From the UHGV virus genome UHGV-0311442: DNA of 64,000 bases. One strand, given 5' to 3'. Position 1 is the first letter of the stretch; every line of letters starts with the position of its first letter. Below, piece after piece: positions 29,655 to 64,000 of this stretch. Under the pieces are notes generated by a model, which saw only the letters and a list, made by a program, of their open reading frames with translations, was not told where the DNA came from and ran no database searches. The stretch is from a virus. A program made the translations under genes and the position numbers.

Positions 29655-29667
29655 GGAGATTTTTTTG

Positions 29668-32600: not shown

Positions 32601-33849
32601 AGCGTGTAAGCTGGGGATTGGTTCTCGTTCAGATTCTGCTGTTACGGATATCCCGTTAGTGATGGAGGAATCTGGGGAAACGGCGGTGGTGGCAACGTTT
32701 AAGGATGTGTTGTTCAACGGCGAGGAAACCAACGCAGCGATACTCGACTTGATAGGCTGGGGTCCAAATAAAGACAAAATCTCTGCAAACCATGCGCCAC
32801 GTGGTATGATTCGTTATCGTTACAACGTAAACACTCGGGTATTACGTTTAGCACTCTCATTCTCACAGTTCGGAACGACAACAGTTAAGCAACGTCAGTT
32901 GGAAATTCAATTCCCGTTTGATTTAGTGGATTACTTCACCGGTGACGGTGTAGGGTTGTCGTTTAAAGAACTGTCTGCGAAATGCCGTGTAACGATTAGC
33001 CACGCACTGATTGATCCGGTCACGACTAAAATCGATATTGATAAGTACCATTACTTACGCTCGTTATTTGAGTCGTATTTGGACGCATCTGTTGGTTATT
33101 TGGCTGATACCAAAGACGTCGACTTTAGTCAGTCTGTGATTGACCCAGCGACTTATGAGATTAGTCAGAAATACCGCGTTACCGAAAGCATTGCGCTGCC
33201 GACCGGCCAGGGAAGTGTTGCTGTTTCCCATGACGGCCAGTTACCTGCGCAGTTCTTTGACCGTAAGCTTTCTCGTGGTGCTTTGATGGCCAAGAAAGGT
33301 GAACTTCATGCCTCCTGGAACAATGAGTGGAGTACATCCAAAGCTGCCGCAAACCGGTATCGGCATAAACTCATTCTACGCTTTGCGCAAGGTGCTGATA
33401 AACAGCAGTACCGTGTTGCAAAAGTGGCAGGAACGGTGAAGTGTAACTGGCCGGGTAAGGTGATTATCGGCGATGCTGGGAAGGACGCGTATGTATCAGC
33501 TATTGATAGCGTGCCGTTTGCGCTTTCGACCAGCGCGGACACAGGTAAAGCAGTTACCCTTACGCCAAAGGATCTACGTGTAGGGCAGGATATTTATATT
33601 GTCTTAGAACCACCGGGTAATAATCCTGAAGGCTACGAGCTTAACTTTACCTGTTCGTTAGATGTCACTGACGAGAACGGTGTTCGTCAAGACCAACTCA
33701 ATGCGCAGAGCTTCGAACTCCGTAGCGGCGAAAGTCAATTCTTAATGGAGAAACGCAATCCGTACCACATCACGAGTAAAGCGTGGAAGTGGATTTTGGC
33801 TGTACTGAAACGAGAACTTAACGGGAAGCAGTTAGGGAATCGTACTTAG
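29668..33849 (+). CDS. tail fibre protein (1393 aa)
   Basis: AAGGAGA RBS; classical fibre motifs KATTAEKGVAKLKTGKGTETTGVAATPASL and ADLGLGRADNTADVDKPLSTELNTALSG. Confidence 0.7.
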   Translation: MKAYPYDPRGTKAENHFLEERIIGSENNNDRVVILDHRPFFEDLVVRQPGSTTPLSRGVDYELQYQLTELDDSVAANVYCGVHLINPSIKGIVTFEGQMLGGTFYDPFVDILDELVKYLNNPVSADWLLLDGRPSLYPATPAATSWADLLNKKYLASAVHDIELKTDDANQLIKDKLAEVKALVTALGKEIEAFNYPAHIAAKNPHETTSAQINAHPVNLKTPDTFMAYGLKLKALTDELKAFRLPQSVIDTYISHWISSEVRGVFNCTVSGNRAQFRSKNGESEIIFANDGFTLKSNGSVVLAVGHLEGTGAGRYINWRAGKNTLRIESTGDALGMNKLTLNGNPLLTTTALMEYQQDPDAGSGGGGDPDDSKVYIEGRNGISFTGKGSRADPIVGTIDPTKATTAEKGVAKLKTGKGTETTGVAATPASLAPYSTDLSGYVAKTTMINGKPMNDGSRTITKADLGLGRADNTADVDKPLSTELNTALSGLADAGHHHDWSELGIYKASQTVYGIGRYATNQNGLVENRAVVPNVLKELSARLDVVAAAIANAKEGSVTDFAAVKGADWRFNSQGTAISVQDLKYFYLLNGAKADSAVTGSIDLQTTPMFNWFSPNNQIETTWPTGKVSAGKGISWTGIEEPPLMGFQSVPVGKTASQMGDQSVVTVLAKTRVRARQPKLWVYAAGGGPVTVYINGIQAATGQSPLVAVYETSADVENYTVAVKAECSDTAKSAAVQFEIYDGDYPVYFSGPETHVELLQEFVTTHVGIRHYLYVNMLTGSLYSRTEPIQSIAVDPERGYIGYVDIVAGESYSNKTVSFETTFDFGKSTEVSEHIDARKAHGLSSVDWTLTDNPRLPLLNRAIAEPRTCIFRKALTAGTGDVFHLVSRGLYTYAHNQNVKSSLQYVVIPEGATPYCWFTPFNPKENNAPTFEGSFAFDVDDVGGTQALTAAPDLVLCTSTQGSSVKRRYVRIDLTAKACKLGIGSRSDSAVTDIPLVMEESGETAVVATFKDVLFNGEETNAAILDLIGWGPNKDKISANHAPRGMIRYRYNVNTRVLRLALSFSQFGTTTVKQRQLEIQFPFDLVDYFTGDGVGLSFKELSAKCRVTISHALIDPVTTKIDIDKYHYLRSLFESYLDASVGYLADTKDVDFSQSVIDPATYEISQKYRVTESIALPTGQGSVAVSHDGQLPAQFFDRKLSRGALMAKKGELHASWNNEWSTSKAAANRYRHKLILRFAQGADKQQYRVAKVAGTVKCNWPGKVIIGDAGKDAYVSAIDSVPFALSTSADTGKAVTLTPKDLRVGQDIYIVLEPPGNNPEGYELNFTCSLDVTDENGVRQDQLNAQSFELRSGESQFLMEKRNPYHITSKAWKWILAVLKRELNGKQLGNRT

Positions 33850-33887
33850 GACAGGCTGCCTGCGGGCAGTTGTGTGTCCGTAGGTAA

Positions 33888-33924
33888 CCCCTCCCTGTAA
33901 TGGGGAGGGGTATCCATTTTATTT
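33888..33924 (+). terminator. rho-independent terminator
   Basis: hairpin CCCCTCCC-tgtaa-TGGGGAGGGG followed by TATCCATTTTATTT. Confidence 0.55.
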
Positions 33925-33943
33925 AAAAGTAGGAGTCTTTACG

Positions 33944-36900
33944 ATGCCGAGAGAAGACGCGGCGCAGTTTAACGGTACGCTAAGCACAGCGACGTACCCT
34001 AACCGATTTAACGTGGTCATTCCGCCTGAAGGACCTTTTTATCGTATCGGATTAAAACTCACAGTAGCCGACGATACCGCGCCTAACGGACGTCGTACTC
34101 TGATTGAGGGGTTGGACTACTATTTAGGCTATTACTTTAAAGAACTCGCAGAAGCTGAGCAAGATCAGATTTACGGCGGGTTCATGTTGCTGACCGCAAC
34201 AGAAATCGAATATGAGATTTTAGGGGTAGCACGCCAGTATCGTGTACCACAATCTGAAATCGGAAAGTTCTTAGTTCGTACTGACCTGAAAGACCCACGT
34301 AACGTGGACTGGTCAGAGTTAATGGCGTATGCGCCAGTTATTCAACCCATCGATCCTCCTGCTAACTTAGAAGAAGCTATTCTGAGGGATGAGGTTGTTA
34401 AAGCGTTAAACGATATCCGTAAGAAAATCGTTCAACGTTCAACAGAGTTAGATGCAGCGTTTACCGAAGTCACTAACCTGATTTACGAGAACGGTAAAAA
34501 GGTTTTCGACGAGGAGTTATACCAACACCACCTTAATCCTAACGCACACCAGTATACGACCACTGATGTTGGTGCCCTTCCGGTTTTGGGACGTGCTGTC
34601 GACGCTACAAAAGCGTTTGGACTGACGATTGACGAATTGGCTACGCTGATGGGTTCGGCGGGTATTGAGCAATCAGACGTTGATCAGTTAATGGGTGAAG
34701 CCCTTGGTACCGTTTACGGTCGTTGGGGTAGCACAAACGGTAACGAGCTGACGTTTAAAACCGCAGGCGGACACATCATCAGTATCCGTGGTGATAAGTG
34801 GTTAATTACCTCACCGCAACCGTTGGTGATTAAAGCAGACCAGGACAACAACGAATCGGGTTTGGCGGTTGAATTTAGTGCGGGACTGAATACGCTTTGG
34901 GTGCACTCTGGGACAGAACAGGATGTATTAGCGCCGGTTTACAACTCTGTGTATTTGGTTACACCAGAAATGGTGAACATGTACCTGACGTCTGTAACGT
35001 TACTTGAAGCAAATGCCTATTTCAAACCATCAGACAGCGTAAAACCATACGGTACAGCGAAGCAGTCTAATCCGCTAACGTTGAACGCGAATATTCCCAC
35101 AGCAACCGAGTCGGTTTATGGGGTGTTTTCGATTACGAATATCGCAACCTCCGTAGCACTAGGCACTGCTATTTCCCAAAAGGCGGTGACCGAATTAAAA
35201 GACCGGTTAGACTTGTACGTTGACGATGACTACACGGTTAACGGTAAAGGGTTTGTTAAGACAGGCGATAAAATGGTGTTAACCTTAACGAAAACCGATT
35301 TCGGTATCGATAAGATGGATAACACCATGCCGATCGCTAAACCGGTAACAAAAGCGTTAGCGAATGTGCTGAAAAATAAAAGTGTGAAGGAGCACACGCA
35401 CACTACCGCCGATTTGGATAATGTCCCGATTGGTAGTGCGACTGTAGATGGTATTTTACAGTTGTGGGATGCGATTGATGCCACGAATGATAAAGCCGTC
35501 ACGTCTCGTCAAGGGTGGTTGTTCGCAAAAGAGATCAAGAAGGTTTCCGATAAACTGAATACCATCTTACCTGCGTGGACTGTCGGTGGGGCGAAGTTCG
35601 GTAACAAAAACTTCTTACCCATTCCGGCACTCGGTAATTATTCAGGTTTTACAAAGAACCAGTCCTATCAGAAAGGCGTTGTAGGATATCAACAAGGTAA
35701 AGTTTATTCGTTACGTAATGCTTCTAATGGTGTACCTGGTACAGAGGCTATTTATTACGGTTATGCTGATATCAATACGTCGAATGCATTTGAGAACCCT
35801 CAGCAAACTTCGGTGAAATACCATCCTGCTGGGATGAGTAAATATCCTGGAGTGACCTTAAAAGCTATTTTGATCGGTGGTCAGGAAGCGATTATTTGTC
35901 TGGGTTCTGACAATAACCGTTATCTGGTCTTGTTCAATGGCTCGATGGACCACAGTAAGCACACAGTGGTGTGCCGTGTTACAATGCCGAATTATCGCGA
36001 TAATAGTCCCACTGGTTCAAACGAGATTCCGTGGAATCCTCGGCCAGAATCTGACGATGTTGTTCTGGTTGACGACCACGTTTACCTTCTTCGCTCCACG
36101 GTAAATAACGCTGCTTATGCCGTGGCGGCATGGCGTTTACGTAAAGCCGATTTGTCTACTAATGTTGCGTTAGAATTTGAACGTGTAACGTTAAATGGTG
36201 AAATGGGACAATTCGGAGATAACCTCTGCCTAAGAATTGGCCAGAAGACCGAAGAGTCGCAGACTGGTCAATTCTTCACGTATTACCCACCCGAGGCACG
36301 GGCTAAATGGACAATCGGTCACAACTTTGTCCATGGTCCAGAATGTAACCATGCTTGTGCGGTGCGTGACAGTGTGATTCGTGTGAATCATGTACCCACT
36401 GTGTGGTTTGCGGCTGCCGACGGTTCGACGATTAATTTCCGTCAATGGTCAACAAGTTTCACAATCGATACGTTAACGGGTAGAGTTACGTTGGAGGGTG
36501 CCGAACGTTTCCCCATTAAGGCTGATACTACCACACTGACGTTCGCGGATGGTTCAACTGTAGAAACCAGTCGTAAGTGGGGCGGTGGTCAAGCAAACAA
36601 TCGTTGTTTTGCAACGTATGCTAAACCTAACGGCACCGGAATGATGCTTTCCTGTTGGCAGGTTAACGATGCGGACCAGATGCCGAATGTTTCTATTAAA
36701 GGAACGCAAGGCAAAGAGTTTTTCGATTATTTGCGTTACGATAACCCGAACAATACCTCAGGCGAAGGAACGTTTACTTGGGATAAAGGCCGTGGTTCTA
36801 TCTATACCATCGGTCTTTCTCATCCTGTCGGTATCGGTGGTTCGAATAAGGTTTGGCTATCCAATCCACGCAACCGTTATACGATCGAAGTAGAAGTTGA

Positions 36901-39127
36901 CCCAAGTAAACCTTATGACGTTCCTGGATATAGCGGTTATGGCCCGAACAACAACCGTCGAGAAGTTGATGCAACCCTTTACGAACAGTTAAGCTGTATG
37001 GCTGCTTGCATGACTCCAGAGGAGCGTCACGGCCAGTTAAACGGTTGGTATTTGACGAAAGCGGAAACCTTCCCATATCGAAACATCTACGGTAACTTTG
37101 CCCTGTCATCAGAACGGCTGACGTTAGAGGAAGCGGATCGCCAGAAGATGATTAGGATGATTGTCGATGGTGCACCATCTGGTCAGGCAAACGGTTACGC
37201 GAACGAGCGCATCAGCGCAGCACACCAAAGCGGTAACGCGTTGTTTGCGCTCTGGTTGCTAGGCATTAACACTGTTTGTGAGTTCGACTTATTACAAGTC
37301 TCATGCATGAAAATCTTGAGTAACGGACGTCGAGTTCTCGACATCTATTATTTCATGGTGAGTCCGACTAAAGAAAACGGTTATCTACGTTTTAACTCGG
37401 CTACTTTCAAACTCGTTGATTGGTTCTTAGACCTTGATTACGGCTTAAGTTATCAGTCTCTGAGGGAAGAAGCGGGTAATAAAACGCGACGTGTAGGCCA
37501 GCCAATTTTTGCTTCTGCCGACGGTGTAAACTTCGGTCTATGGCTACCTTATACGCTGACAATACGGAATATCGGGGACCTAAATGCTTTGGGTTACGCT
37601 GCGAAGTATACCTTCGACCCTGGGTCGGGTTGGACTCGCGTTCCCGGTAAGTCACAATTGCGTCGGATGGCCCCTGCTCATAATCCCGAAACAGGCTGCT
37701 ACATGGGTGCGGGTAATTGGGACAAGATGGCACTAATTTTCTCTAAAGCAGATCGTGTCTTCTGTTCAGGTAACGCATATACAGCCGAAGAGTTCGTTAA
37801 TGACACCAGATTCACAACTGGGGGACAGGCGGTTATTATCGCTGGTGTGGAAACTGCCGAAGGTTGGATTCTATATTTGACGGAAGAGGTCAGGTTAGAT
37901 TTCGGTAGTAATAGCTATACATTACCGACGTGGTTGGTGGATTTAAGCAATGAATTCCCAGAAAACCATGCTAACCAGACGTTCTATGTTCATGCTGCTC
38001 TTGTAGGTTCGAAAGCTCAATATCAGATCGGTCTGGAAAAGCTGCCGGATACGAGTTCGCGATTATTTGTTGGTACAGTTACAACCGATAAAAAGCGCAT
38101 AGTTGCTATTAACATCGATAAAGTGAAACGGTTAGGCAGGGTTCGTGAATTAGAAGAACACGCTGCTGTTAGAGATCAGCACGACGTTGCAGCGGCGTAC
38201 GATCGAAAAACGGGTCCACTCCAAACCTTGGTTAACCAACCGCTGAAAGCCCCCACGGCATCTGCGGGCAAGGGTGCAGGGTATGCCGATGGTCAGAGAT
38301 GGAATGCGTTGACCGGGATCACAACACGTCCCAAACTGCCGATACAGGAAACCTACGCAGGTTATAAAAGTATCGGTAGAGTAGCGTATGAGAACTGCGC
38401 TGATCAGTTCTGGCAGAAAGCGGTCGCTGCAAACGTTGCAGCGGCTACTGCGTCTGAGAACAGTCAAGCGGCAGCCGCGAACATGAAGTGGTTGGGCGCG
38501 TATACGAAACCGACTACAGGTGCGAATGCATATCTGGCGCTGAGTCTGCGTGTTAAAGTGCCTGGTAATCCCGGCACCGCTAATCGTAGACTAAAAATCA
38601 GGCTTGCGGCTCCGACAGGTATAACCCAAGTTCGTTACGGGTTAAACCAGTCTGGTGGCACGATGACTGAACAGACAGTAACGTTAACTGCTAACAGTTA
38701 TCTGGAAAAAGAACACGCCGGATTTAAGCCAGCCGAAGAAGTCCGTGTACATGCTACGTTTGTCATTCCAAAAAATGAATACGATAGCTACCGTACGAAG
38801 TTCGGTGCTGTTCAGCTGATTGACGTTGAGTCGAACACTGTCATTAAACAGACAGATATCGACACACCGTTTATCGTGTATACCGACACGGAGTTAGCAG
38901 CGCAATCTGGTTTGGTGTATAAAGCGGTTAAGGGTCAGTTCCATCAACTCCCGTCTCAACCTGTCGTCATTGTAACTGATGGACAGACAGGGACTACGCC
39001 ACCGGTGAAAACCTCGTTTGCTGACGGGACATTAACGGTCTACGTGGCAACCACGTACGATGCGGTTAACCCAGCACAAACCCGCGATATCGATAAGCTC
39101 CAGTTCAATCTTATGTTTACATCTTAA
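33944..39127 (+). CDS. tail fibre / receptor-binding protein (1727 aa)
   Basis: shares N-terminal GPFY...DYxLxY module; largest ORF of the operon. Confidence 0.6.
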   Translation: MPREDAAQFNGTLSTATYPNRFNVVIPPEGPFYRIGLKLTVADDTAPNGRRTLIEGLDYYLGYYFKELAEAEQDQIYGGFMLLTATEIEYEILGVARQYRVPQSEIGKFLVRTDLKDPRNVDWSELMAYAPVIQPIDPPANLEEAILRDEVVKALNDIRKKIVQRSTELDAAFTEVTNLIYENGKKVFDEELYQHHLNPNAHQYTTTDVGALPVLGRAVDATKAFGLTIDELATLMGSAGIEQSDVDQLMGEALGTVYGRWGSTNGNELTFKTAGGHIISIRGDKWLITSPQPLVIKADQDNNESGLAVEFSAGLNTLWVHSGTEQDVLAPVYNSVYLVTPEMVNMYLTSVTLLEANAYFKPSDSVKPYGTAKQSNPLTLNANIPTATESVYGVFSITNIATSVALGTAISQKAVTELKDRLDLYVDDDYTVNGKGFVKTGDKMVLTLTKTDFGIDKMDNTMPIAKPVTKALANVLKNKSVKEHTHTTADLDNVPIGSATVDGILQLWDAIDATNDKAVTSRQGWLFAKEIKKVSDKLNTILPAWTVGGAKFGNKNFLPIPALGNYSGFTKNQSYQKGVVGYQQGKVYSLRNASNGVPGTEAIYYGYADINTSNAFENPQQTSVKYHPAGMSKYPGVTLKAILIGGQEAIICLGSDNNRYLVLFNGSMDHSKHTVVCRVTMPNYRDNSPTGSNEIPWNPRPESDDVVLVDDHVYLLRSTVNNAAYAVAAWRLRKADLSTNVALEFERVTLNGEMGQFGDNLCLRIGQKTEESQTGQFFTYYPPEARAKWTIGHNFVHGPECNHACAVRDSVIRVNHVPTVWFAAADGSTINFRQWSTSFTIDTLTGRVTLEGAERFPIKADTTTLTFADGSTVETSRKWGGGQANNRCFATYAKPNGTGMMLSCWQVNDADQMPNVSIKGTQGKEFFDYLRYDNPNNTSGEGTFTWDKGRGSIYTIGLSHPVGIGGSNKVWLSNPRNRYTIEVEVDPSKPYDVPGYSGYGPNNNRREVDATLYEQLSCMAACMTPEERHGQLNGWYLTKAETFPYRNIYGNFALSSERLTLEEADRQKMIRMIVDGAPSGQANGYANERISAAHQSGNALFALWLLGINTVCEFDLLQVSCMKILSNGRRVLDIYYFMVSPTKENGYLRFNSATFKLVDWFLDLDYGLSYQSLREEAGNKTRRVGQPIFASADGVNFGLWLPYTLTIRNIGDLNALGYAAKYTFDPGSGWTRVPGKSQLRRMAPAHNPETGCYMGAGNWDKMALIFSKADRVFCSGNAYTAEEFVNDTRFTTGGQAVIIAGVETAEGWILYLTEEVRLDFGSNSYTLPTWLVDLSNEFPENHANQTFYVHAALVGSKAQYQIGLEKLPDTSSRLFVGTVTTDKKRIVAINIDKVKRLGRVRELEEHAAVRDQHDVAAAYDRKTGPLQTLVNQPLKAPTASAGKGAGYADGQRWNALTGITTRPKLPIQETYAGYKSIGRVAYENCADQFWQKAVAANVAAATASENSQAAAANMKWLGAYTKPTTGANAYLALSLRVKVPGNPGTANRRLKIRLAAPTGITQVRYGLNQSGGTMTEQTVTLTANSYLEKEHAGFKPAEEVRVHATFVIPKNEYDSYRTKFGAVQLIDVESNTVIKQTDIDTPFIVYTDTELAAQSGLVYKAVKGQFHQLPSQPVVIVTDGQTGTTPPVKTSFADGTLTVYVATTYDAVNPAQTRDIDKLQFNLMFTS

Positions 39128-39167
39128 CGCCACGAGACAAGGACGTCTCGGATTAAGGAGAGTGGCC

Positions 39168-40367
39168 ATGGCCTCCATTGTATATCAGTACCCTTTAGAT
39201 TTAACGGGAACCCTAACCTCTAACGCCGTGGAGCGTCAGGTTACGTTAGGTACAGGTAAAGTTAACCGTGCGTTTGCTTTTCCTGACGGACCGTTTTATG
39301 CTGATACGTTCCGCTTGCGGGTTGCCAATCGACCCGACGCGACGTATGAACGCGGAACGGACTATGAGTTGATTTTTGCACACCCGGGTTACGAGAAATT
39401 GACGAAGAACCGGGAAGTGGTAATGGCGGTTGTTGTAACGAACACCGCGATTCCGACCGATATCACGGTATCGGCGCAAGTAGTCGGTGGTCCGCAGTCT
39501 GCAAACGTGACTGCGATAGAACAGGCGATTGCCGAGTTGAATCTCGATAATCGAACTGTTGGCTTTAAAGACTTGCGAAATGTGCCGGACACGTTTCCTT
39601 CGGCACCAACGTATAAAGACGTCGGCGATATTTACGGCTTCGAATATATCATTACAGTGCTCGCTGGCATCAAAGATGCGATAACGGCGGGTGATGCTGT
39701 ACAGCTTGAGAACATCAAAGCGATTCTCGAAAGCCTGAAAAACGATTTCCTGGACGCGCTGAACGCGCACATTAACGCCACGGGTAATGTCCACCATCTG
39801 GATATTCATCAGGTTAACGGGTTAACAGAAACGGAGATCCGTGCACTTATCCGTGACGTACAATCTGCCATCGATGCAACCATTACTGATATTAATGCGT
39901 TGAAGAAAGCAGACGAAGCGTTAGGAAAACGTATTGATGCTGTTGTCAAATCTTTGGAAGCGTGGAACGACCAACTTAACATCGTTGCCCAAAACTACCA
40001 GAAGATGGCATTGGCATTGGCGAACCTAAATTCGCTAGTGTTACAGTTACAGAAAAATATCAACGATCTGAACACCAAACTCAACCAAGCGATTCAGCGC
40101 ATTGCTGCGTTAGAACAACGGGGTAATGAGTCCGATCAGAAAATTGATAATCTGCAACAAAACCTGGATGCGCTTAAACAACAGGTTGCGAATAACACGA
40201 ACGCAATCAGTCAGGCGAATCAGAACCTACAAAACCATATTGCGGCGGATAACCCGCACACAGGTTATCTCCACAAGAAATACGGCGGTGTGGTTCAGGC
40301 TCCAGTGCACGTTAACGCTAACTTGACGTCCCGTGATGACGTTCAGGCAGAAGCGGGTACGAAATAA
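39168..40367 (+). CDS. tail fibre-associated protein with C-terminal coiled coil (400 aa)
   Basis: start re-set to ATG 39168 with AAGGAGAG RBS; N-terminal FPDGPFY...DYELIF module; heptad-like Q/N/L-rich C-terminus. Confidence 0.55.
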   Translation: MASIVYQYPLDLTGTLTSNAVERQVTLGTGKVNRAFAFPDGPFYADTFRLRVANRPDATYERGTDYELIFAHPGYEKLTKNREVVMAVVVTNTAIPTDITVSAQVVGGPQSANVTAIEQAIAELNLDNRTVGFKDLRNVPDTFPSAPTYKDVGDIYGFEYIITVLAGIKDAITAGDAVQLENIKAILESLKNDFLDALNAHINATGNVHHLDIHQVNGLTETEIRALIRDVQSAIDATITDINALKKADEALGKRIDAVVKSLEAWNDQLNIVAQNYQKMALALANLNSLVLQLQKNINDLNTKLNQAIQRIAALEQRGNESDQKIDNLQQNLDALKQQVANNTNAISQANQNLQNHIAADNPHTGYLHKKYGGVVQAPVHVNANLTSRDDVQAEAGTK

Positions 40368-41448: not shown

Positions 41449-41597
41449 CTAAGCCCTCCAGTGGTAGTATGTCTATTACGCAATAACCGAGTTAATCGTA
41501 CGGGTTTACTACTGAGTTTCAAGTTACCGGTAGGCAATGGTGCGGTGGTTTCTATACCCTGAATGTCCGTTTGACCGTGAAATAATTGGAGCAATCA

Positions 41598-42485
41598 ATG
41601 AAGAATGATTTACATTTAGCGTACAAAACAATTTTCAATCATCCACTTCACATTTCTTCCCCTGATTCCGTACGTGCACACTTAGCAGATGAAGTTCGTC
41701 TGTTGACTCAGTTGCCGGGCGAATGGCCTAAAGTGCGCGGACGTTTCTTTACCGATCGTAAAAACTATCGTGTGGAAAATACGTTTAAGATTCGTGATCT
41801 GACGGCAGAAAGTGTAGTGGTCTTTACCGGTGACTCCGAGTTGCGTGGTAAACTGGTTGCGGGTAAATATTTCTTTAGTGACGGGATTTTGAATAACTCC
41901 GTAGATATGGAATTGTTCTTTACCCCATTTGAAGAAATGGGCGCAAAACCAGTTGCCCGTCGTTGGTGGTCGCCGGATTACTTAGGCTCGTTCCCGTATT
42001 TCTTTACCCTGGTAACACCAGAAACGAAGAACTATTTCGATACGGAATCGTATATCGAAATTGAAGGGTACGAAGCGTTAGGGATTAATTGCTTAGCGGA
42101 TTTAATGGCGTATAGCTATAAGTTCGTGTGGGATCGTGAACGTTCCGTGTGGGTTGCCCTGACGGATGAACACGAAATTACAAAACGCATCCGTAAGCCT
42201 TGGATGCAGCATTTGATTCAAACGCGTATTGGCGAGCATCCGTCAACAGAAGCGGATCTGGCAAAACTCGTTAGTTTCTTAATGACGAAAGTCACGTTAA
42301 CTGACGAAGAGAAAGCAGCAGTGTCGGCGGTGTTGGACCGTAACGTAACGTTAGCGGATTTAGAACGTTTAAATGTCCGTTATAAAGACCTTAATCGTAT
42401 TTTGGAAGCGTATAACTCTCCATTCTTGTTAACCCCTGGTGCTAACGTAGACGACGATCCTTTGTTCGCCATTGATTATATTTAA
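41598..42485 (+). CDS. hypothetical protein (295 aa), cassette accessory
   Basis: GGAG RBS before ATG 41598; sits between precursor genes and radical SAM genes. Confidence 0.5.
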   Translation: MKNDLHLAYKTIFNHPLHISSPDSVRAHLADEVRLLTQLPGEWPKVRGRFFTDRKNYRVENTFKIRDLTAESVVVFTGDSELRGKLVAGKYFFSDGILNNSVDMELFFTPFEEMGAKPVARRWWSPDYLGSFPYFFTLVTPETKNYFDTESYIEIEGYEALGINCLADLMAYSYKFVWDRERSVWVALTDEHEITKRIRKPWMQHLIQTRIGEHPSTEADLAKLVSFLMTKVTLTDEEKAAVSAVLDRNVTLADLERLNVRYKDLNRILEAYNSPFLLTPGANVDDDPLFAIDYI

Positions 42486-42506
42486 AAACGACCGGAGTCA
42501 CCTGCA

Positions 42507-43430
42507 ATGACAACCAATGCAGAACCAAGGTTATCGAATCGTTTATACGATAAACCCACCGTATTGTCCGTAGTCGCTACGTCCAAGTGTAACCTGGATT
42601 GTAGCTTCTGCGGTGGAGCCTATTACATGAATCGTGAAGATTCTCCGCGAGAGTTTCAACGTGAGCGAATTTTGGAAGCGCTGGAAGCTAATCCAACCAT
42701 TACCGAAATTCAGTGGACGGGTGGTGAGCCATTACTGGCAACCCGTAAAATTGAGGCGTTTGTTGACGAATTAAAAGTGATTCGTCCAGAACTCAAACAC
42801 CAGTTGTATACCAATGGCTTAAAGATGCGTAAATCGCATCTCCCGTTGCTAAAACAGTTTGACAATGTCTACGTTAGCATCGATGGGTTTAAGTCGTCTG
42901 AGCGCCCGTTTATGCGCTTTATTGACGAAGGCTGTTACGAAGCACTGGAAACGATCTACGAGCTGGATAATGTCCAGACTTGGGGTGTCCTGACACGGGA
43001 CCGTTTAGGGGACAAACGCTGGCACGAAGATATTATTCAGCTGCACAGCGCGATTTACCATTACGGTTTCCGTGCAATGACGTTACTCTTAGATGCGAAA
43101 ATGCCAAAACCTTTATCGCCTGACCACGTCATGAACTTTATTTACGGCTACTATCAGGTTCAGGACAACATTGAACGTCTGAATGTAGTAAATGGACGTG
43201 AATGTGGCTTTACGGTAAGTAAAGTGTTTGAAGAAGGGTGTAACGTTTGCAGCGAAAGTCTTTGGATTAATGCAGACGGTGGTGAGCACCAACTCCAGAA
43301 TGCACCTAACGTTCTGGAATCGGGATGTAACCAACTGGCCTTCTCTATCGGTGTAGAGGCGTACGAATATATTCGTCGCGTAGTGATGGCAGGACGTAAT
43401 AGAGGGGCGGCAAATGAGCCAAGCAAATGA
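42507..43430 (+). CDS. radical SAM enzyme (307 aa)
   Basis: CNLDCSFCGG (CxxxCxxC) and GGEPLL SAM-binding motif; extra C-terminal Cys (CNVCSE...GCNQ). Confidence 0.7.
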   Translation: MTTNAEPRLSNRLYDKPTVLSVVATSKCNLDCSFCGGAYYMNREDSPREFQRERILEALEANPTITEIQWTGGEPLLATRKIEAFVDELKVIRPELKHQLYTNGLKMRKSHLPLLKQFDNVYVSIDGFKSSERPFMRFIDEGCYEALETIYELDNVQTWGVLTRDRLGDKRWHEDIIQLHSAIYHYGFRAMTLLLDAKMPKPLSPDHVMNFIYGYYQVQDNIERLNVVNGRECGFTVSKVFEEGCNVCSESLWINADGGEHQLQNAPNVLESGCNQLAFSIGVEAYEYIRRVVMAGRNRGAANEPSK

Positions 43431-44736
43431 ATTCCCTAAGCAGTTAACGTATCAGATCGTAACCAACCTTTCGTGTAACCTGGACTGCGAATATTGTTAC
43501 GAACGTAAGTACCCGCGTAACAACAAAGCGGCCGACATTGTTGATTTCTTACACGCCTGTTTTGAACGTGATAAAAACGAACCGAATGTTGAAGTTATTA
43601 TCGACATTATCGGCGGTGAACCGTTCATGCAGCCTAAGTTGCTGCTGGCAGCGTTTGAAACCGCAGAGCAGTTGTGTAAAGAACACAACCGTCCGTTTAT
43701 GTTTAGTATCTCCACGAACGGGACCTTGTTAGATCGTCCGTTGAACCGTGAGATTGTAGAACGTTGGAAAGACAAACTTTCGGTTGGGGTTTCGATTGAT
43801 GGCTTGCCTGAGTCCCATGACCGTTATCGTATCTTCACAACAACGCGCCAGGGTTCTTACGAAGCCGCAGTACGTGGCTATAATTACTTAAAAGAGGTTG
43901 GCATTGCAGAACTCGGCGTAAAAGCGACCTTTACGTTAGAAACACTGCCGTTCTATGCTGCAGGGATGAAGTCATTAATTGACATTACTGGCGGTGGGAC
44001 AATTTCTGGGAACGTAACCTTCGAAGACGTTATGCCACGTAGCATGGCGACGTCAATCGCTTTACAGATGATGGATGTGATAGATTATTGGGTTGAGAAA
44101 GGATTACACACCAACCCACGTAATATCTTATCGCACATCATTCCAGAAGGGTTGGATTTCGATACGATTTGGGAACCGAACTGGCGTGACCAGTTACTGT
44201 ATAATGACACCGTACGGTTGAACCCAGAACGTTTACGTCCGTTCTGTGGGACGTTAACGCACATGACGTGCTTAGGATTTGACCGTAAGATCTTTGGCTG
44301 TAACCGCTTTATGTCAACGGTAACGTCGCGTTCTGCGGTGTTTGAGTTGGTAGGTCGGGAATTCGTCAGTCTGGACAACGGTAAATTGTTAGAAGAGATT
44401 CAAACGCAATATACCAACTACCCAGAGACCTGTTTAGGTTGTCCGATGAAACACGCTTGTGGTAGCTGTGCGGCGGCTTCTTACGAGAACGGGGAAGGAA
44501 CGTTAGAAGACCGTAAAGCGTATCACGCTGAACGTCGTCAGTGTGGCTGGACGACAGCGAAACTGATGGTGGCGGAATACTGGAAACAGAAGATGGGTAC
44601 GACGTCAGCAAAAGCGTTCCACGACACGAGCATGTGTTATTGCCCACGCTGTGTTCGTGAACGTGCCCAAAAGGAAAAATTATTAAGAGAAGCCAAAGAT
44701 GAAACCAATTCTGATCAACAATATTACGAAGCGTAG
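43414..44736 (+). CDS. radical SAM enzyme with SPASM-like C-terminal domain (440 aa)
   Basis: CNLDCEYCYE and GGEPF motifs; C-terminal CLGCPMKHACGSC cluster typical of SPASM/twitch auxiliary Fe-S domains; 17-nt overlap with upstream gene. Confidence 0.7.
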   Translation: MSQANEFPKQLTYQIVTNLSCNLDCEYCYERKYPRNNKAADIVDFLHACFERDKNEPNVEVIIDIIGGEPFMQPKLLLAAFETAEQLCKEHNRPFMFSISTNGTLLDRPLNREIVERWKDKLSVGVSIDGLPESHDRYRIFTTTRQGSYEAAVRGYNYLKEVGIAELGVKATFTLETLPFYAAGMKSLIDITGGGTISGNVTFEDVMPRSMATSIALQMMDVIDYWVEKGLHTNPRNILSHIIPEGLDFDTIWEPNWRDQLLYNDTVRLNPERLRPFCGTLTHMTCLGFDRKIFGCNRFMSTVTSRSAVFELVGREFVSLDNGKLLEEIQTQYTNYPETCLGCPMKHACGSCAAASYENGEGTLEDRKAYHAERRQCGWTTAKLMVAEYWKQKMGTTSAKAFHDTSMCYCPRCVRERAQKEKLLREAKDETNSDQQYYEA

Positions 44737-46561: not shown

Positions 46562-46571
46562 CCCCCCCCCC
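46562..46571. repeat. C10/G10 homopolymer tract in intergenic hairpin
   Basis: ten consecutive C on plus strand. Confidence 0.8.
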
Positions 46572-58616: not shown

Positions 58617-58653
58617 ATAAAAACCGTAGGATGGACTTAGTCCATCCTACGGT
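58617..58653 (-). terminator. rho-independent terminator
   Basis: hairpin CCGTAGGATGGAC-tta-GTCCATCCTACGG flanked by A/T runs. Confidence 0.6.
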
Positions 58654-58658
58654 TTAAA

Positions 58659-60785
58659 TTAAATAACTACCCAGCTTTTACCATCGGAGCCAACTTGCAT
58701 TAGCGTAATACTTTCAGTGGTCTCAATGGGTTTGGCAAGACCTTCCGTCCCACCCTTTGGAGTGATGAGAACGTTCGAATTTTGCGGTTTAACGGTGATC
58801 GAACCAGCCTTATTTGCCACGATCTGTATATTTCTACCCACGCTATATTCTAGATCAGGAATAGTAAGTTGGCCGCCACGGTTGGTGGCTGGGAAATACA
58901 CATAAGACGATACATCTTCCTCAGATAACACTATACTACCAGAATCACGATTGACCGAGATCTCAAACTTAGAAATATCGATATCGTAGGCAGTAACTTT
59001 CGTAATATCTGTCAGAACCAATTCGTTCAAATTGGTCTTAGCTGTACTGTTCGCCAGATCAAATGGAGTGCCATTCTTGCCGTCAAGCACAGGCGTGACT
59101 TTGATTTTATTGTCACCCGGATAAATGATTTCAAACGTATGCCAGTTATTATCGTACGCACCAAAAGTTCCTAATTGCACATTCTGCTTTTTATGATGCA
59201 TCAGATAAAGATTCGTACCGTCGGTCTGTAAGAAAAAAGACATTAAGTACGGGTTCGTATCAGCCACACCAGCGTCAGCAAGTGTAGTACCAGAAGGTAG
59301 GTCGGACGCGGAAATACGCCAATAAAGTCCTAATCCGAAACGATCTGCTGCTAAATCACCTTTTAGTCTAAAAGTAACGGTCAGACGTCCACCGTAACGT
59401 ATCATGTCCGCAGCAGATGTCATTGACTTAGTTACATTCCAAGGTTTCATCGTTACAGCCTTTCTTAATTCGACGAAATGCCCGTTTCCATCCTCAGAAT
59501 CTTGCACGGTTACGTTACAATCAACGATATTGTTCCAACCCTGCCCTTTCAGGGAACCATCTCCACGACGTCCGTTATAACCCACAGACTCTACTAATGG
59601 GGTATAGCTTCTTACCACATTCATATTGTCTTTGAGCTCTTTAGTGTCGTTCTTCGTCAGGAGCATTGCACCATTCGCTGTTCTTGATAATATCTCAGCA
59701 GCTATTCTCTCTGAGATAATACCGCGTCGTGCCCAAGAACTGAAATGGCTATTCCTTGTTTCAGACGTCCAGTTTTTATTACTACGGGTGGCAGCACCGT
59801 AGTAGGCAGCACCAGCGATATCAGGATCGTCAGTGGGATCATTAGTCGGTACACGTTGGCCATTATCGTCGTACATGAATGGAACAAAAAAGATATTTTT
59901 TTGTTCATTGTTACGATAATTACCGTATATGGTTTCATATTGAACAGGATATTTTTCCTTCCAATAGTAGGTAGTGTCCCCGCAGATCCATGGTACTTCG
60001 GCGGTGTCGTACTCGGGCATCTGAGAGAGATGGTCAGAGAGATCAGTTCGGAAACGCTCTACCATTGCCATAAATAACGCTGGTTGTTGTGCGTAACCTA
60101 CTTTAGTCAGATCATACTCCCCCTGCATCCACACTACAGCCAAGAGTTTATTTTTAGGATTAACGTCCAGAGCTTTTTTGGTCCGGCTAACTAAATCTTT
60201 ATAAAGAGGTTTTTCCACCCCCCATACCGATGACGTCGCAGAGGCTCCTGTGGCTTCATCGAAGGTACCTTCTGCACCACCCGTGAAAGCAGAACCGCCG
60301 CGTGCGCAGGGTACTAGTAAGATACCAGCGTTGCTAGGAATATACGGGAGAAGACGCTTCGCGATGTGTAGACCTTGACCCACACATCCGTATTCACCTT
60401 TGTCCAAATTGGCTTTGGGGTGCGAGAATACGGACATATCTTGCACGTCGTGCAGACAGTGATCCGCTGGAATGACGTCGTTATACTTACAATCAGCACC
60501 ATTAGGCGTTACCTTCGCACGGCGCGCCATTTGTTTAATCCGCGGATCGGGAGCGTCCAACGTCGCTGGTAAAGGCAATCCTTCACCATAACTCATCGCA
60601 TTAGATTGCCCGGCTATAGGGATCACGAAGTAATAATCCGGTTCCGTCACCCCCCCCCCTTGAAGTTCTGCAATATCAATTTTATATTCTTTTTCTTCCT
60701 TAGAAAGGAGAACTACCGCACCTTTGAGATCGCCAGAGAAATTGTCGAGTTCATGGATACGTTTCTTTCCAATTGGTTGAACCAT
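58659..60785 (-). CDS. tail-associated SASA/SGNH-type carbohydrate O-acetylesterase with C-terminal beta-rich domain (708 aa)
   Basis: N-terminal FVIPIAGQSNAMSYGEG (GQSN motif); GGAGGT RBS before ATG 60785; adjacent to fibre genes. Confidence 0.6.
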   Translation of the reverse strand: MVQPIGKKRIHELDNFSGDLKGAVVLLSKEEKEYKIDIAELQGGGVTEPDYYFVIPIAGQSNAMSYGEGLPLPATLDAPDPRIKQMARRAKVTPNGADCKYNDVIPADHCLHDVQDMSVFSHPKANLDKGEYGCVGQGLHIAKRLLPYIPSNAGILLVPCARGGSAFTGGAEGTFDEATGASATSSVWGVEKPLYKDLVSRTKKALDVNPKNKLLAVVWMQGEYDLTKVGYAQQPALFMAMVERFRTDLSDHLSQMPEYDTAEVPWICGDTTYYWKEKYPVQYETIYGNYRNNEQKNIFFVPFMYDDNGQRVPTNDPTDDPDIAGAAYYGAATRSNKNWTSETRNSHFSSWARRGIISERIAAEILSRTANGAMLLTKNDTKELKDNMNVVRSYTPLVESVGYNGRRGDGSLKGQGWNNIVDCNVTVQDSEDGNGHFVELRKAVTMKPWNVTKSMTSAADMIRYGGRLTVTFRLKGDLAADRFGLGLYWRISASDLPSGTTLADAGVADTNPYLMSFFLQTDGTNLYLMHHKKQNVQLGTFGAYDNNWHTFEIIYPGDNKIKVTPVLDGKNGTPFDLANSTAKTNLNELVLTDITKVTAYDIDISKFEISVNRDSGSIVLSEEDVSSYVYFPATNRGGQLTIPDLEYSVGRNIQIVANKAGSITVKPQNSNVLITPKGGTEGLAKPIETTESITLMQVGSDGKSWVVI
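60650..60659 (-). repeat. G10 homopolymer tract inside the esterase coding sequence (codons for GGGV)
   Basis: ten consecutive C on plus strand; in frame as given. Confidence 0.85.
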
Positions 60786-61106
60786 TGTAACCTCCAATTT
60801 TTAAACCAATACTCTTCCGGTTAGCGCGACATGCCGTTCTGTGATAAGGCAGTACTAACGATAAGTTTAACCGGGGTTTGTTCTTCCGTAATAGGGATTT
60901 CATCGAGATTGTTGATATCAATAGTAACATCATGGACTTTAGGCATTGTTACCAAGATAGTCAACATTACCACCGATGCTTTTGTGGAAGTATCCGCAAC
61001 GTAATATTTAACGTCCAGTAATTCGTTACTTTCAGATAAGTAGAGTATTTGCGGATAGATTGTTATCAATGTAAAAAAAATACCAACGCCATTTAAGTTT
61101 TAGCCA

Positions 61107-61622
61107 TTAATGATCTCCGAAGGTTAATGCACAATTATCTGCGGTAACGATTAAATCGTCGTCTTTTGTTACTGCGGCTTCTTCACTGTTACCGAAAACC
61201 AGAACAGAGAATTGACCTTTATAACCTAATGAATTAGGTGATACCTGTAACGTTACCGCGTCTTTTCCTACAGTGAAAGAATCATCTGTTAGATCTTCAG
61301 CTTGTAAGTTACTGCCACAAGCTGCGTTAATCGCTTCGATTAAATCGTGTGTGGTAAACCCTTCCCCGGCTACTTTTACCAGAATAGGTTGCTGGTTTAA
61401 CCACCGCTCTGCGGTTAAACGGTTGTAATAGATCTGCAACGTTCTGTTTCCAGGACGCTTAATCTTTACAACGGCAGTGGTATCACGATTCATTTCTTCA
61501 GTAGGATTTACGTTGCTGAACTCAACCTCGTTTTCTTGCAGATCGAGCTGAAGGTCGTAGTTGATCAGCGATATAACCATGTTAGTTGAAGTTAATGATA
61601 AATCTGGTGTGAATTGCCCCAT
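61107..61622 (-). CDS. five-member paralog family protein (171 aa)
   Basis: start re-set to ATG 61622 with GGAGGT RBS; LINYDL...HDLIEAINAACG pattern. Confidence 0.5.
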   Translation of the reverse strand: MGQFTPDLSLTSTNMVISLINYDLQLDLQENEVEFSNVNPTEEMNRDTTAVVKIKRPGNRTLQIYYNRLTAERWLNQQPILVKVAGEGFTTHDLIEAINAACGSNLQAEDLTDDSFTVGKDAVTLQVSPNSLGYKGQFSVLVFGNSEEAAVTKDDDLIVTADNCALTFGDH

Positions 61623-61720: not shown

Positions 61721-62224
61721 TTAACTAATTCTCAAATCACGTAGTGCGCCTGTTGACTTCATCACGTTTTGGAACGCAGCGCTGATGTTATTAGTCCAGT
61801 AGTAATGCTGTCCGTTAATAACCTGCTGATAGGCCAGCGCGCAGGTGTTGCCACCTAAATTTACGGTAATGTTAGAGGCTCTGCCTCCTTGTAAGTAAAC
61901 CGCTAAAGTAGGCTTTGCGTTGGTAAATATCGTCGTTAGCATTAACTCGATACCTATTAAAGTCCCCACCCCGCAGTTACCCGCGTTTTGAATGGTCCCC
62001 TGATTTTTCTGGTTTAACGGCCAGCTTGGTCCTACTGCGCCCCATTTATTACCTAAAGAATCGCTATATGCAGCGGTTGCAATTTTACAGCCCATAGATC
62101 GTCCCACCATTTGACTCATCATAAAAGGTCTACCCAATCCTAATTTACTACCCGCAGCGCTCATCCATTGTTGGCCAGTTTCATTCTTAGCTGAAGATCC
62201 GTCCCATCCTGACGCTACCCCCAT
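61721..62224 (-). CDS. Gly-rich putative tail fibre accessory protein (167 aa)
   Basis: AAGGAGGG RBS; N-terminal GWDGSSAKNETGQQWMSAAG shared with 62241..63032. Confidence 0.5.
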   Translation of the reverse strand: MGVASGWDGSSAKNETGQQWMSAAGSKLGLGRPFMMSQMVGRSMGCKIATAAYSDSLGNKWGAVGPSWPLNQKNQGTIQNAGNCGVGTLIGIELMLTTIFTNAKPTLAVYLQGGRASNITVNLGGNTCALAYQQVINGQHYYWTNNISAAFQNVMKSTGALRDLRIS

Positions 62225-62240: not shown

Positions 62241-63032
62241 TTAAACACGTGAACCGTATATTGCACCTACTGCGTCCCATCTTGGCGCATTACCAGTAAC
62301 AGCTGCACCAGCTGCTCCGCCGTTATATTCTGTACCGTTACCTTGAGTATTACATCTTCCTCCACCAGCACCGACATTACCACCCGAACCGCCTGTATAT
62401 GCACTAAGAGACCCCTCACCAACAGATCCTCTACCAGGAGCGGAAATAGTACCAGCAGCCGCACCGGAACTCATATGAGAGGAAGACCCACCAGCACCGA
62501 ATGGGCGACCACCGCCACCACCAAATATTAGTCTACCCCTGTTACCGCCGCCACCGCCGCCACCGCCTCCGGCAATAGCGCCACGGTTGGTTATACGCAG
62601 TCTGTTTCCTATTCCGTTCTGTACTGCGGTTCCACCTGCACCGCCTGGCGAGTTAGAACCACCGTTGCCTCCTCTGCCGTATACTGTAACCCCAGGATTG
62701 ATGATGAGTGTAATATACGAATTTGGAAGATTGCTAGGGAATTCTAAACAAGGAACCCCGCTACTATAAGACACTAAATCCCCTGTAATGGTCACAACGA
62801 CAGCAGTAGAGCCTAAAGAACGTAAATAGTTAATAAGCGTATCTTTATTGTAATTGTGATTAGCTCCGATCGAATACTGAACCTCTTTTGATTTTCCCGC
62901 CAATTGCGACATCCAGCCTGGAACCGGCACACCGAGTGTGCGCATCGCGCCAGACATCCAACCATTACCAGCTTCAGCTTTTGCTGAAGAACCAATCCAT
63001 CCGGGAGTCGCTGATACAGACAAAATAACCAC
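62241..63032 (-). CDS. Gly-rich protein with poly-Gly tracts (263 aa), start uncertain
   Basis: GGGGGGGGGNRG tract; N-terminal GWIGSSAKAEAGNGWMSGA; GTG start without clear RBS, preceded by a perfect hairpin. Confidence 0.45.
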   Translation of the reverse strand: MVILSVSATPGWIGSSAKAEAGNGWMSGAMRTLGVPVPGWMSQLAGKSKEVQYSIGANHNYNKDTLINYLRSLGSTAVVVTITGDLVSYSSGVPCLEFPSNLPNSYITLIINPGVTVYGRGGNGGSNSPGGAGGTAVQNGIGNRLRITNRGAIAGGGGGGGGGNRGRLIFGGGGGRPFGAGGSSSHMSSGAAAGTISAPGRGSVGEGSLSAYTGGSGGNVGAGGGRCNTQGNGTEYNGGAAGAAVTGNAPRWDAVGAIYGSRV

Positions 63033-63078: not shown

Positions 63079-64000
63079 TTATAACTTGTTCTCGATTATC
63101 TCCGCCAACTCCTTTATTGCCTCAATAAGTAGAGCTATTTGGGCAGAGTTAGAGACCGTTAAAACGTCCTCACCATTAGCGTCTTTATAAGTAGAAACTG
63201 CTTCAGGTAACACTTTTTGTAAGGTCTGTGCTACAACGCCAGCCTCACGATGAACATTAGTGGATTTAAAGTTCTCCTTTTTGTCGTATATTAAACCTGA
63301 CAATTCCTTTACCTTCTCCAATGCATTAGTTATTGGAGAGAAATTACTTTTCAGCCGGGCGTCAGATCGTATATAAACGTCGTTAAAGTTACCGTTCCCA
63401 CCACAAACCCAAGTACCGTCGTTTTGCAAATAAGCATTGGCATCGGTGCCATTATCAGTACGTGAGTTGTTTATCATGTAAAAGCCGAATTGATAGTTAC
63501 CTAAACCACCAACAAAAAATTTCCTATCAGCATGGTCTTGTCTTAACAATGCCTGAGCAGAACTGGTTCCTACCGGATTAAGACCAAAAATAACGTTATG
63601 GTCTCTCATGCTAATCCAAGAACCTGAGTTGCTGTTAATAGAATATCTATTTGCATAAACCCAAGTATTGGTTCTTATATCTCCGGTAACGTTGAGAGGT
63701 TTATTGCTTTGAACAGCCCCACTCGTAAAGCGTAAAACATGAGCATTATTGGCGTAAACATCTAGAACGCCATCCCCGTTCTGCTTAAAGCCGGTGTCAT
63801 TATCCCCTAAAACTATGGAGTTCCCACCTAAAGCATTGGCGGTTCCAATACCCAATGCTCCATTCAATTGACCGCCAGATAATGGCAACGCCCCAACGTC
63901 GGCAGCAGTTGGCTTGTTTCTCGTATTGTACACGCGACGCCAACCTGGTGAGTAAGTATCGCCGTTAAATACGTAGATAAACTCCGCATTAGTGAGTGCG
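63079..64000 (-). CDS. tail fibre protein C-terminal portion with S74-type intramolecular chaperone domain (5' part beyond window)
   Basis: PTAADVGALPLSGGQLNG fibre motif; SDARLK autoprocessing motif followed by coiled coil; ORF runs off window end. Confidence 0.65.
   Translation of the reverse strand, partial: ALTNAEFIYVFNGDTYSPGWRRVYNTRNKPTAADVGALPLSGGQLNGALGIGTANALGGNSIVLGDNDTGFKQNGDGVLDVYANNAHVLRFTSGAVQSNKPLNVTGDIRTNTWVYANRYSINSNSGSWISMRDHNVIFGLNPVGTSSAQALLRQDHADRKFFVGGLGNYQFGFYMINNSRTDNGTDANAYLQNDGTWVCGGNGNFNDVYIRSDARLKSNFSPITNALEKVKELSGLIYDKKENFKSTNVHREAGVVAQTLQKVLPEAVSTYKDANGEDVLTVSNSAQIALLIEAIKELAEIIENKL

Follow-up and report, generated by a model that had tools for sequence, protein, structure and literature searches.

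A putative NanS-p-type sialate O-acetylesterase with a poly-G hinge of variable length at the end of a jumbo-phage tail-fibre operon

The esterase locus

The window analyzed here is a 64,000-nt stretch of the virus genome UHGV-0311442, and its minus strand carries, between positions 58659 and 60785, a gene for a putative esterase whose coding sequence contains a run of ten G residues. The open reading frame (ORF) starts with an ATG at 60785, which is preceded at a distance of six bases by GGAGG, ends at 58659, and translates into 708 aa. As judged from protein similarity, the window derives from an uncultured jumbo phage of the SPN3US/phiEaH2 type: one of its conserved virion proteins shares 84% identity with the counterpart in Erwinia phage phiEaH2 and 78% with that in Salmonella phage SPN3US, and the related contigs are 222-228 kb long. 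A first-pass annotation, made from the letters of the window alone, had described the gene as encoding a tail-associated O-acetylesterase that acts on O-antigen or capsule and whose expression could be switched by slippage in the G tract. What it had observed as a whole (the 708-aa ORF at 58659-60785 and the G10 at 60650-60659) was confirmed, and its interpretation as a whole is supported in part. The gene, its predicted parts, and the terminator behind it are as follows:

58659..60785, minus strand: esterase gene, 708 aa including the putative anchor, in frame (ON state); identified by ORF, translation, Pfam SASA and DUF6645, and phrog_143
60660..60785, minus strand: N-terminal 42-aa module (codons 1-42), putative virion/tail anchor; identified by the shared N-termini of proteins encoded in the same slot
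60650..60659, minus strand: G10 homopolymer encoding a Gly hinge (GGG GGG GGG G/TG), apparently hypermutable; identified by sequence and allelic series
59688..60653, minus strand: NanS-like SGNH type II catalytic domain, residues 45-366; identified by phmmer, Foldseek, and Q60/S61/H347
58950..59582, minus strand: lectin-like jelly-roll domain (DUF6645), residues 402-612; identified by phmmer and Foldseek
58662..58949, minus strand: extra C-terminal beta domain, residues 613-708; identified by homologue comparison and structural model
58621..58655, minus strand: intrinsic terminator closing the fibre/esterase transcription unit, with a 16-pair stem followed by a T run

Homologs of the esterase were sought in several collections. 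A megablast search of the esterase locus against GenBank phages returned no match, and the gene thus appears to be carried by no cultured relative represented there. Scans of IMG/VR by protein pattern and by DNA pattern found nothing, nor did a search of GTDB genome contigs, and exact-sequence look-ups had no record of the window esterase, its 283-aa neighbour, or the DUF7941 protein encoded upstream. The 147-aa protein is the only one of the window proteins that is identical across the relatives. At the protein level, the esterase falls into a 90% cluster of 84 sequences, the closest of which are 89-93% identical to it. Cluster members of 706, 707, and 708 aa have one, two, and three hinge glycines, respectively, and one member of 663 aa begins at a GTG located right behind the tract. 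A copy of 706 aa is present in a Shigella sonnei assembly.

Domain architecture of the esterase

The esterase matches the Pfam family SASA (PF03629) with 42.4 bits against a cut-off of 24.8 and, in its C-terminal part, DUF6645 (PF20350) with 102 bits; among the PHROGs, phrog_143 covers residues 44-615. Residues 45-366 are similar to E. coli NanS/YjhS (PDB 3PT5; phmmer E 1.2e-121), and residues 402-612 to the C-terminal domain of NanS-p (6YP6; phmmer E 5.5e-37). The structure was modelled with AlphaFold (AF2) from 64 homologues. Foldseek superposed this model on 3PT5 with a template-modelling score (TM) of 0.88 (target-normalised) at 57% identity, and its lectin-like domain on 6YP6 with TM 0.90. 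The latter domain also resembles the sialic-acid-binding module of the V. cholerae sialidase (2W68, TM about 0.7). The catalytic residues reported for NanS, Ser19 and His301, and its oxyanion Gln18 (PMC9063846) align with S61, H347, and Q60 of the esterase, all three being invariant across the 64 homologues. In a tblastn search, SASA-family esterases encoded by phage 434 and by many Shiga-toxin (Stx)-converting phages were approximately 50% identical to the protein.

Because of these matches to Pfam families and to 3PT5 and 6YP6, the superposition of the folds, the aligned active-site residues, and the tblastn identity, the gene product is predicted to be a sialate O-acetylesterase of the NanS-p type with the catalytic Ser and His conserved. 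This assignment is more specific than the O-antigen or capsule deacetylase of the first-pass annotation and, at the same time, bears out most of what that annotation had read from the translation: the GQSN motif is found at residues 59-62, the SASA domain is recovered by the profile search, the esterase identity is sharpened to the NanS/NanS-p family, and the beta-rich C-terminal region corresponds to the DUF6645 match and to the beta strands that the model places from about residue 390 to 708. The last part of this region (residues 613-708) was modelled as an extra beta domain with predicted local distance difference test (pLDDT) values of 70-91; it is present in homologues from Salmonella prophages and absent from the NanS-p proteins of phage 434 and Stx phages. 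The closest enzymes that have been characterised use 9-O-acetylated sialic acid as substrate, also where it is bound to mucin, and by analogy a sialic-acid substrate, either in mucus or in a sialylated O-acetylated capsule or O-antigen, may be expected for the putative esterase.

Length of the poly-G tract in related phages

On the coding strand, the G10 at 60650-60659 is read in frame as CAA GGG GGG GGG GTG and spans codons 43-46 (Gly43-Gly44-Gly45-Val46), one codon further than the codons 42-45 given in the first-pass annotation, which had placed the run itself correctly. Given the composition of the window, about 0.03 runs of ten or more G or C are expected by chance in 64 kb. Exactly two were observed, both G10 on the minus strand, and the next longest run is 6. 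The tract in the esterase gene is located exactly at the boundary between the anchor module and the enzyme, where it encodes the Gly hinge.

Comparison with related phages revealed two kinds of esterase allele. In the interrupted sister allele (L001-L005, L010, L012, and L013), the hinge is encoded as CAG GGC GTG or CAG GGC ACG and contains one Gly. In the tract-bearing allele, runs of G7, G9, G10, and G11 are alike embedded in the context CAA-Gn-TGACGG. The out-of-frame forms were found by searching a protein database with the predicted frameshift peptide. The lengths observed in this allele are as follows:

G7: L009 (ERZ27246429); in frame
G9: L020 and L022 (run ERR7738532), L023 (run ERR2368357), L024 (run ERR2367902), and L025; frameshifted
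G10: window; in frame
G11: L026 (run ERR14760501) and L027 (run ERR2368003); frameshifted

Thus, the slippage-prone tract and switchable expression that had been suspected from the window alone gain support from the length comparison: lengths vary between G7 and G11, and two of them, G9 and G11, break the frame. Relatives with interrupted codons (CAG GGC) do exist, as just described, but the length of the tract-bearing allele is not invariant, and the first-pass annotation thus withstands the refutation that it had itself named.

The frameshifted loci have a characteristic gene layout. In G9, a TGA right behind the run ends the anchor ORF, and gene calling starts the esterase body at a GTG, the two ORFs overlapping by four bases (GTGA). 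The resulting 45-aa ORF (ending ELQGGG, stop) was observed on at least 8 contigs, one of them 224,967 bp long, and a 45-aa variant of it was seen on an MSQP background. In G11, the anchor ORF is 61 aa long and overlaps the esterase ORF by 50 bases; this 61-aa ORF was found on 2 contigs. Length changes are observed on nearly or fully identical backgrounds: the 680-nt flanks of L024 (G9) and L026 (G11) are identical, and between the window (G10) and L023 (G9) the flanks show 2 differences in 680 positions. One further contig (L021; ERZ28628744 scaffold_14, 224,230 bp) ends inside the tract, its last 10 bases being part of a run of at least 10 G, a break in keeping with either heterogeneous tract lengths or low-quality reads there.

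The esterase body (663 codons, 1,989 nt) is uninterrupted in all four of the full-length OFF loci, which is in better keeping with shifts that are recent or reversible than with long-established pseudogenes. Within this body, tract-bearing alleles are 2-4% apart, with a ratio of synonymous to non-synonymous codon changes of about 1:1. Among the contigs sampled, OFF and ON forms occur at similar frequency. Taken as a whole, the tract appears to be a genuine hypermutable homopolymer that exists naturally in ON and OFF states.

The N-terminal module and the tail-fibre cluster

The esterase is the last gene of a same-strand cluster, the upstream order being a gp37-like fibre with an S74 chaperone, a Gp38 adhesin, a Gp38_N protein, a DUF7941 protein, and an 82-aa ORF:

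63079-63933, minus strand: C-terminus of the gp37-like fibre with S74 chaperone, running off the window
62241-63032, minus strand: Gp38 adhesin, 263 aa (Gp38_N and GP38 domains)
61721-62224, minus strand: Gp38_N-only protein, 167 aa
61721..63933, minus strand: tail-fibre module overall
61107..61622, minus strand: DUF7941 virion structural protein; identified by Pfam DUF7941 and the PHROG annotation 'virion structural protein'
60821..61069, minus strand: 82-aa ORF, putative remnant of a C-terminal domain of the 206/731-aa type; identified by alignment and phrog_33169

The full-length fibres of the relatives are 1475-1533 aa long. The DUF7941 gene is always directly upstream of the cassette slot in which the esterase gene lies (by synteny of L001-L027 and Salmonella phage SPFM16), and encodes either approximately 171 aa or, in some relatives, 644 aa, the larger form having a 464-aa N-terminal extension that matches tail-fibre PHROGs. 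The first-pass annotation had stated that the esterase lies among fibre genes. It does belong to the fibre cluster, but as its last gene, with the terminator behind it and no fibre genes downstream: the genes beyond the terminator have no fibre or tail match, most of them match no family, and no function is assigned to any of them.

The slot after the DUF7941 gene (among L006-L017, e.g., positions 6479-9033 in L008 and 6837-9032 in L016) is a cassette site. In 17 related genomes it is occupied either by the esterase of 706-708 aa or by a protein of 206 or 731 aa, the larger of these two consisting of the head and tail of the 206-aa protein with an insert of approximately 520 aa. The translation of the 82-aa ORF aligns with the end of the 206-aa protein of L006 and L008 (...LSQNGMK) and with positions 759-841 of the 842 of phrog_33169, and its counterpart is called as a gene of 75-89 aa in the relatives. 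By this alignment, the 82-aa ORF is best read as a scar left when cassettes were exchanged. All cassette types have a Gly-rich hinge, usually with mixed codons, and the pure G run may have originated as a side effect of recombination at the junction of Gly codons across which the cassettes are exchanged.

All three kinds of slot protein share the N-terminal module of the esterase, M..P[IV]GK.R[IV]HEL ... SKE..EY.[IL].I..L, followed by a Gly/Ser hinge. The first 42 residues of a 157-aa protein of phage SPFM16, which belongs to phrog_9017 ('tail fiber protein', annotated Phi92_gp140), also align with this module and are followed by GGGG. A DUF1737 domain, by comparison, was rejected for the N-terminus of the esterase: with a threshold as loose as E<=1, PF08410 has no match in the esterase, against 56.7 bits for the phage 434 protein, and an apparent tblastn extension into the phage 434 N-terminus was noise. 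Because the module heads several interchangeable proteins in a slot that ends the tail-fibre operon, we propose that the enzyme is carried by the virion. Virion carriage, probably on the tail/fibre apparatus, appears to be the most likely location, and the tail association proposed in the first-pass annotation is plausible in view of the synteny, the modularity, and the annotations of the homologues. Carriage of such enzymes has a precedent in the NanS-p protein gp84 of phage phi24B, whose DUF1737 domain is reported to be a capsid-binding decoration domain (2026 preprint); therefore, NanS-p enzymes can ride on virions via an N-terminal domain.

Proposed mechanism

The reading that we favor, to which we assign a probability of roughly 0.62, is that of a NanS-p-type esterase placed on a tail-fibre-slot anchor through a hypermutable poly-G hinge, with natural ON and OFF alleles, the enzyme being probably virion-borne. 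In this proposal, a NanS-p-type enzyme would have been grafted onto a tail-fibre-type anchor in place of the DUF1737 capsid-binding domain. Slipped-strand mispairing in replication would then change the length of the G run at a hinge that tolerates from one to three glycines. Lengths of 3n+1 (G7 and G10) would yield the full fusion with two or three Gly (ON). With G9, the anchor ORF would stop at the TGA and leave the esterase body to start at the overlapping GTG, and with G11, the anchor ORF would run into a 61-aa dead end; in both cases the tethered enzyme would be lost (OFF). As a consequence of the length variation, phage populations would hold virions with and without the tethered esterase. 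We infer slippage as the cause of the natural length series, and the switching may be of benefit to the phage, i.e., adaptive.

Several points weigh against this proposal. The slot is dispensable, in that other phages carry unrelated cassettes there, and the OFF alleles may be merely tolerated losses. Most relatives interrupt the hinge codons (GGC; GGG GGT GGT in the 206-aa type; GGC GGT GGT GGG in SPFM16), and the pure G run belongs to a single allele lineage rather than to the family as a whole. With respect to the anchor, the model has pLDDT <50 over residues 1-45 and gives nothing on this module, and tail attachment is a suggestion drawn from synteny and from the database annotations of homologues. 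Finally, some of the G9, G10, and G11 calls may be technical, and the G10 of L018 was downgraded as independent evidence and given little weight, this locus coming from an error-prone assembly that is described below.

Alternative explanations

The main rival is that the tract is real and mutable without being a switch, i.e., that it is a recent hot spot in a weakly selected accessory gene, whose G9 and G11 forms are decaying loss-of-function mutants. This explanation, in which the gene is part of a dispensable cassette and the hot spot is neutral, differs from ours in significance rather than in mechanism; we consider it unlikely, although deserving of serious weight. It draws on the exchangeable slot with its unrelated genes in many relatives, on the restriction of the pure G run to one lineage, on the similar frequencies of OFF and ON contigs, and on the ratio of codon differences of about 1:1, which speaks for only moderate purifying selection. 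However, decay is hard to reconcile with an esterase body of 1,989 nt that stays open in each of the four full-length OFF loci. The length changes, furthermore, recur on closely related or identical backgrounds, and the tract persists across alleles that are 2-4% apart, although a hot spot that is deleterious tends to be broken up soon, as in the sister lineage.

A second group of alternatives concerns the location of the enzyme. The esterase might not be tail-borne, but rather a capsid decoration or a soluble enzyme freed at lysis, its adjacency to fibre genes being incidental. The characterised homologue phi24B gp84 does bind the capsid and is cleaved off, and prophage NanS-p proteins are discussed in the literature as lysogen fitness factors. 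Nonetheless, we regard this alternative as improbable, given that the capsid-binding DUF1737 is absent from the esterase, that the module found in its stead is common to tail-fibre-family proteins of the same slot, and that the adjacent DUF7941 gene can bear the 464-aa extension of tail-fibre type; in addition, the phage seems to be a virulent-type jumbo phage, which would have no lysogen to benefit. A further elaboration of our proposal would be a phase switch between a tail-tethered (G7, G10) and an untethered esterase, in which termination-reinitiation at the GTGA of the G9 allele could give a free 663-aa enzyme together with the bare 45-aa anchor. By keeping both kinds of virion, with and without the ability to remove O-acetyl groups from sialoglycans on contact, the population would hedge its bets in the face of hosts or mucus with variable O-acetylation of sialic acid. 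This elaboration is doubtful.

Long G runs are miscounted by +/-1 by library PCR and Illumina chemistry, and the length differences could in principle be artefacts of sequencing, library PCR, or assembly around one fixed biological length. Homopolymers of about ten G are error-prone, some of the supporting contigs are short and of low coverage (L025, coverage 2.3), and one contig (L021) ends in the tract. The public contig L018 (CYGL01000001.1, 228,572 bp), the only match from the JGI collection, is 97% identical to the window and full of single-base indels (ten in 5.3 kb, several of them outside homopolymers). An A7 homopolymer within the esterase gene (coding strand, window 59896-59902) is A7 in all loci except L018, where it is A6, which would break the frame. 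L018 looks like an uncorrected error-prone assembly, unfit for inference of tract length. Against an artefact stand the 3-4 bases that separate G7 from G10 and G11, the occurrence of G9 in at least five assemblies from three pipelines, including the 224,967-bp contig present under NCBI, ENA, and Logan, and the two occurrences of G11.

The second long G run of the window served as a control for this alternative:

46562-46571, minus strand: second G10, intergenic between two DUF7941-like paralogues; 5' arm of a terminator hairpin

The hairpin consists of CGGGGGGGGGG TAA CCTCCCCG, followed by a U-rich tail, and folds with -20.3 kcal/mol (z -2.7). The site was compared in ten relatives and reads G10 (6), G9 (2), G7 (1), or GGGGAGGGGG (1), so that 7 of 11 genomes, the window included, have G10. 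The deviating forms (G9, G7, and GGGGAGGGGG) accompany distinct loop haplotypes rather than identical backgrounds. Since the lengths of the control tract follow haplotype, generic miscalling of G10 is not rampant in these assemblies. The interrupted form GGGGAGGGGG pairs perfectly with the 3' arm of the hairpin, and the second G10 run probably stems from an A-to-G substitution that G-U pairing accommodates. An artefact as the general explanation is very improbable; the sequencing-error hot spot that the first-pass annotation had offered as its own alternative is weakened rather than eliminated, as +/-1 differences may be partly technical.

Programmed recoding, in which ribosomal frameshifting or transcriptional slippage at the tract would yield two products from a fixed DNA as in tail assembly chaperones, is scarcely credible and was rejected: the G run is formally slippery, and a +1 shift in the G10 allele would meet TGA at once and give an anchor-only peptide, but the 141-nt surroundings fold without significant RNA structure (z -1.44), most relatives lack the tract and encode one continuous protein, the DNA length itself varies, and G runs are in general poor substrates for known bacterial recoding.

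Comparison with known systems

The closest enzymatic counterparts of the window esterase are NanS and the NanS-p proteins (933W NanS-p, phi24B gp84/vb_24B_21, and E. coli YjhS), with which it has in common a catalytic domain (57% identical to NanS) with a Ser/His/Gln active site, a lectin-like C-terminal domain (DUF6645, 6YP6), and approximately 50% overall identity to the proteins of phage 434 and Stx phages. It also appears to follow the same three-part logic of a phage-specific N-terminal attachment domain, an enzyme, and a carbohydrate-binding module. It differs from NanS-p in lacking DUF1737, in place of which it has the 42-aa module of tail-fibre-slot proteins, and in having the poly-G hinge and the extra C-terminal beta domain of approximately 95 aa. 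The genomic settings are also different: the window esterase ends the tail-fibre operon of a phage of approximately 225 kb similar to SPN3US, whereas NanS-p is encoded between Q/stx and the lysis genes of lambdoid prophages.

With respect to the tract, hypermutable polyG tracts of 7-11 G are described for receptor-binding protein genes of Campylobacter Fletchervirus phages (Sorensen et al. 2021). The two cases are alike in having a run of 7-11 G in the gene for a virion surface protein (a putative one here) and in having length variants that shift the frame and form mixed populations (predicted ones here). The window phage belongs to another phage family with another host, here Enterobacteriaceae. 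To our knowledge, polyG switching is not generally used in Enterobacteriaceae genomes. In further distinction from Fletchervirus, the affected protein would be a glycan-modifying enzyme and not a receptor-binding protein proper, the tract lies exactly at a domain hinge, so that in-frame changes would be tolerated, and the evidence for the window phage is comparative. Homopolymer contingency loci were also described for the T2/T4 coliphages (Gomez, Barrick and Waters, bioRxiv 10.1101/2025.10.21.683753), and there too homopolymer slippage causes reversible frameshifts in E. coli phages; the tract of the window differs from them in being a 10-mer in a fibre module. The nearest positional counterpart is SPFM16_00113 of a Seoulvirus (phrog_9017), which follows the DUF7941 gene and has the homologous N-terminus of approximately 42 aa and a GGGG hinge; however, its C-terminal part is an unrelated 110-aa fibre tip, and its hinge is encoded in mixed Gly codons.

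The NanS-p enzyme and the phage polyG tract were each described before separately, and their combination appears to be new. New as well would be the presence, in a jumbo phage, of a tail-fibre-slot anchor where NanS-p has DUF1737, the position of the tract exactly at the hinge between anchor and enzyme, and the natural ON/OFF series recovered from metagenomes. The case brings together three subjects hitherto investigated apart from each other: homopolymer contingency loci in phages, the modular apparatus with which jumbo phages bind receptors, and the NanS-p esterases, best known as prophage cargo of Shiga-toxin E. coli and lately also reported from the capsid of a phage. It would offer a clean natural example of an attachment module swapped on the same enzyme (DUF1737 for the tail-fibre anchor). 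If the switching is real, an uncultured phage recovered in many metagenome assemblies would vary the carriage of a sialic-acid deacetylase on its virions, which would constitute a testable phase variation in an enterobacterial phage acting on the decoration of host glycans or capsules and might bear on the passage of phages through mucus and on their access to sialylated hosts. A practical consequence concerns annotation: the split ORFs of 45 or 61 aa and 663 aa in many assemblies would represent tract-length states, not separate genes.

Other features of the window

A scan for sigma-70-type promoters gave fewer matches than were found in shuffled sequences and hence was uninformative.

Within the fibre cluster, the combination of adhesin-type genes differs among the relatives (180/181, 167/175, 124, and 76 aa). 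Together with the tandem arrangement of adhesin genes, these differing combinations suggest a variable adhesin set.

Outside the fibre cluster, two groups of plus-strand genes reflect the affinity of the phage:

41586-44736, plus strand: radical-SAM gene cluster
25332-40367, plus strand: four large paralogous genes for virion proteins in a row (1440, 1394, 1727, and 435 aa)

The radical-SAM cluster is approximately 72.6% identical at the DNA level to Salmonella SPFM/Seoulvirus phages and constitutes the strongest nucleotide match to cultured phages among the matches listed in a search that covered positions 40000-64000. The four paralogous virion-protein genes have common matches to phrog_2163/7449/7557/8078, as in SPN3US-like phages.

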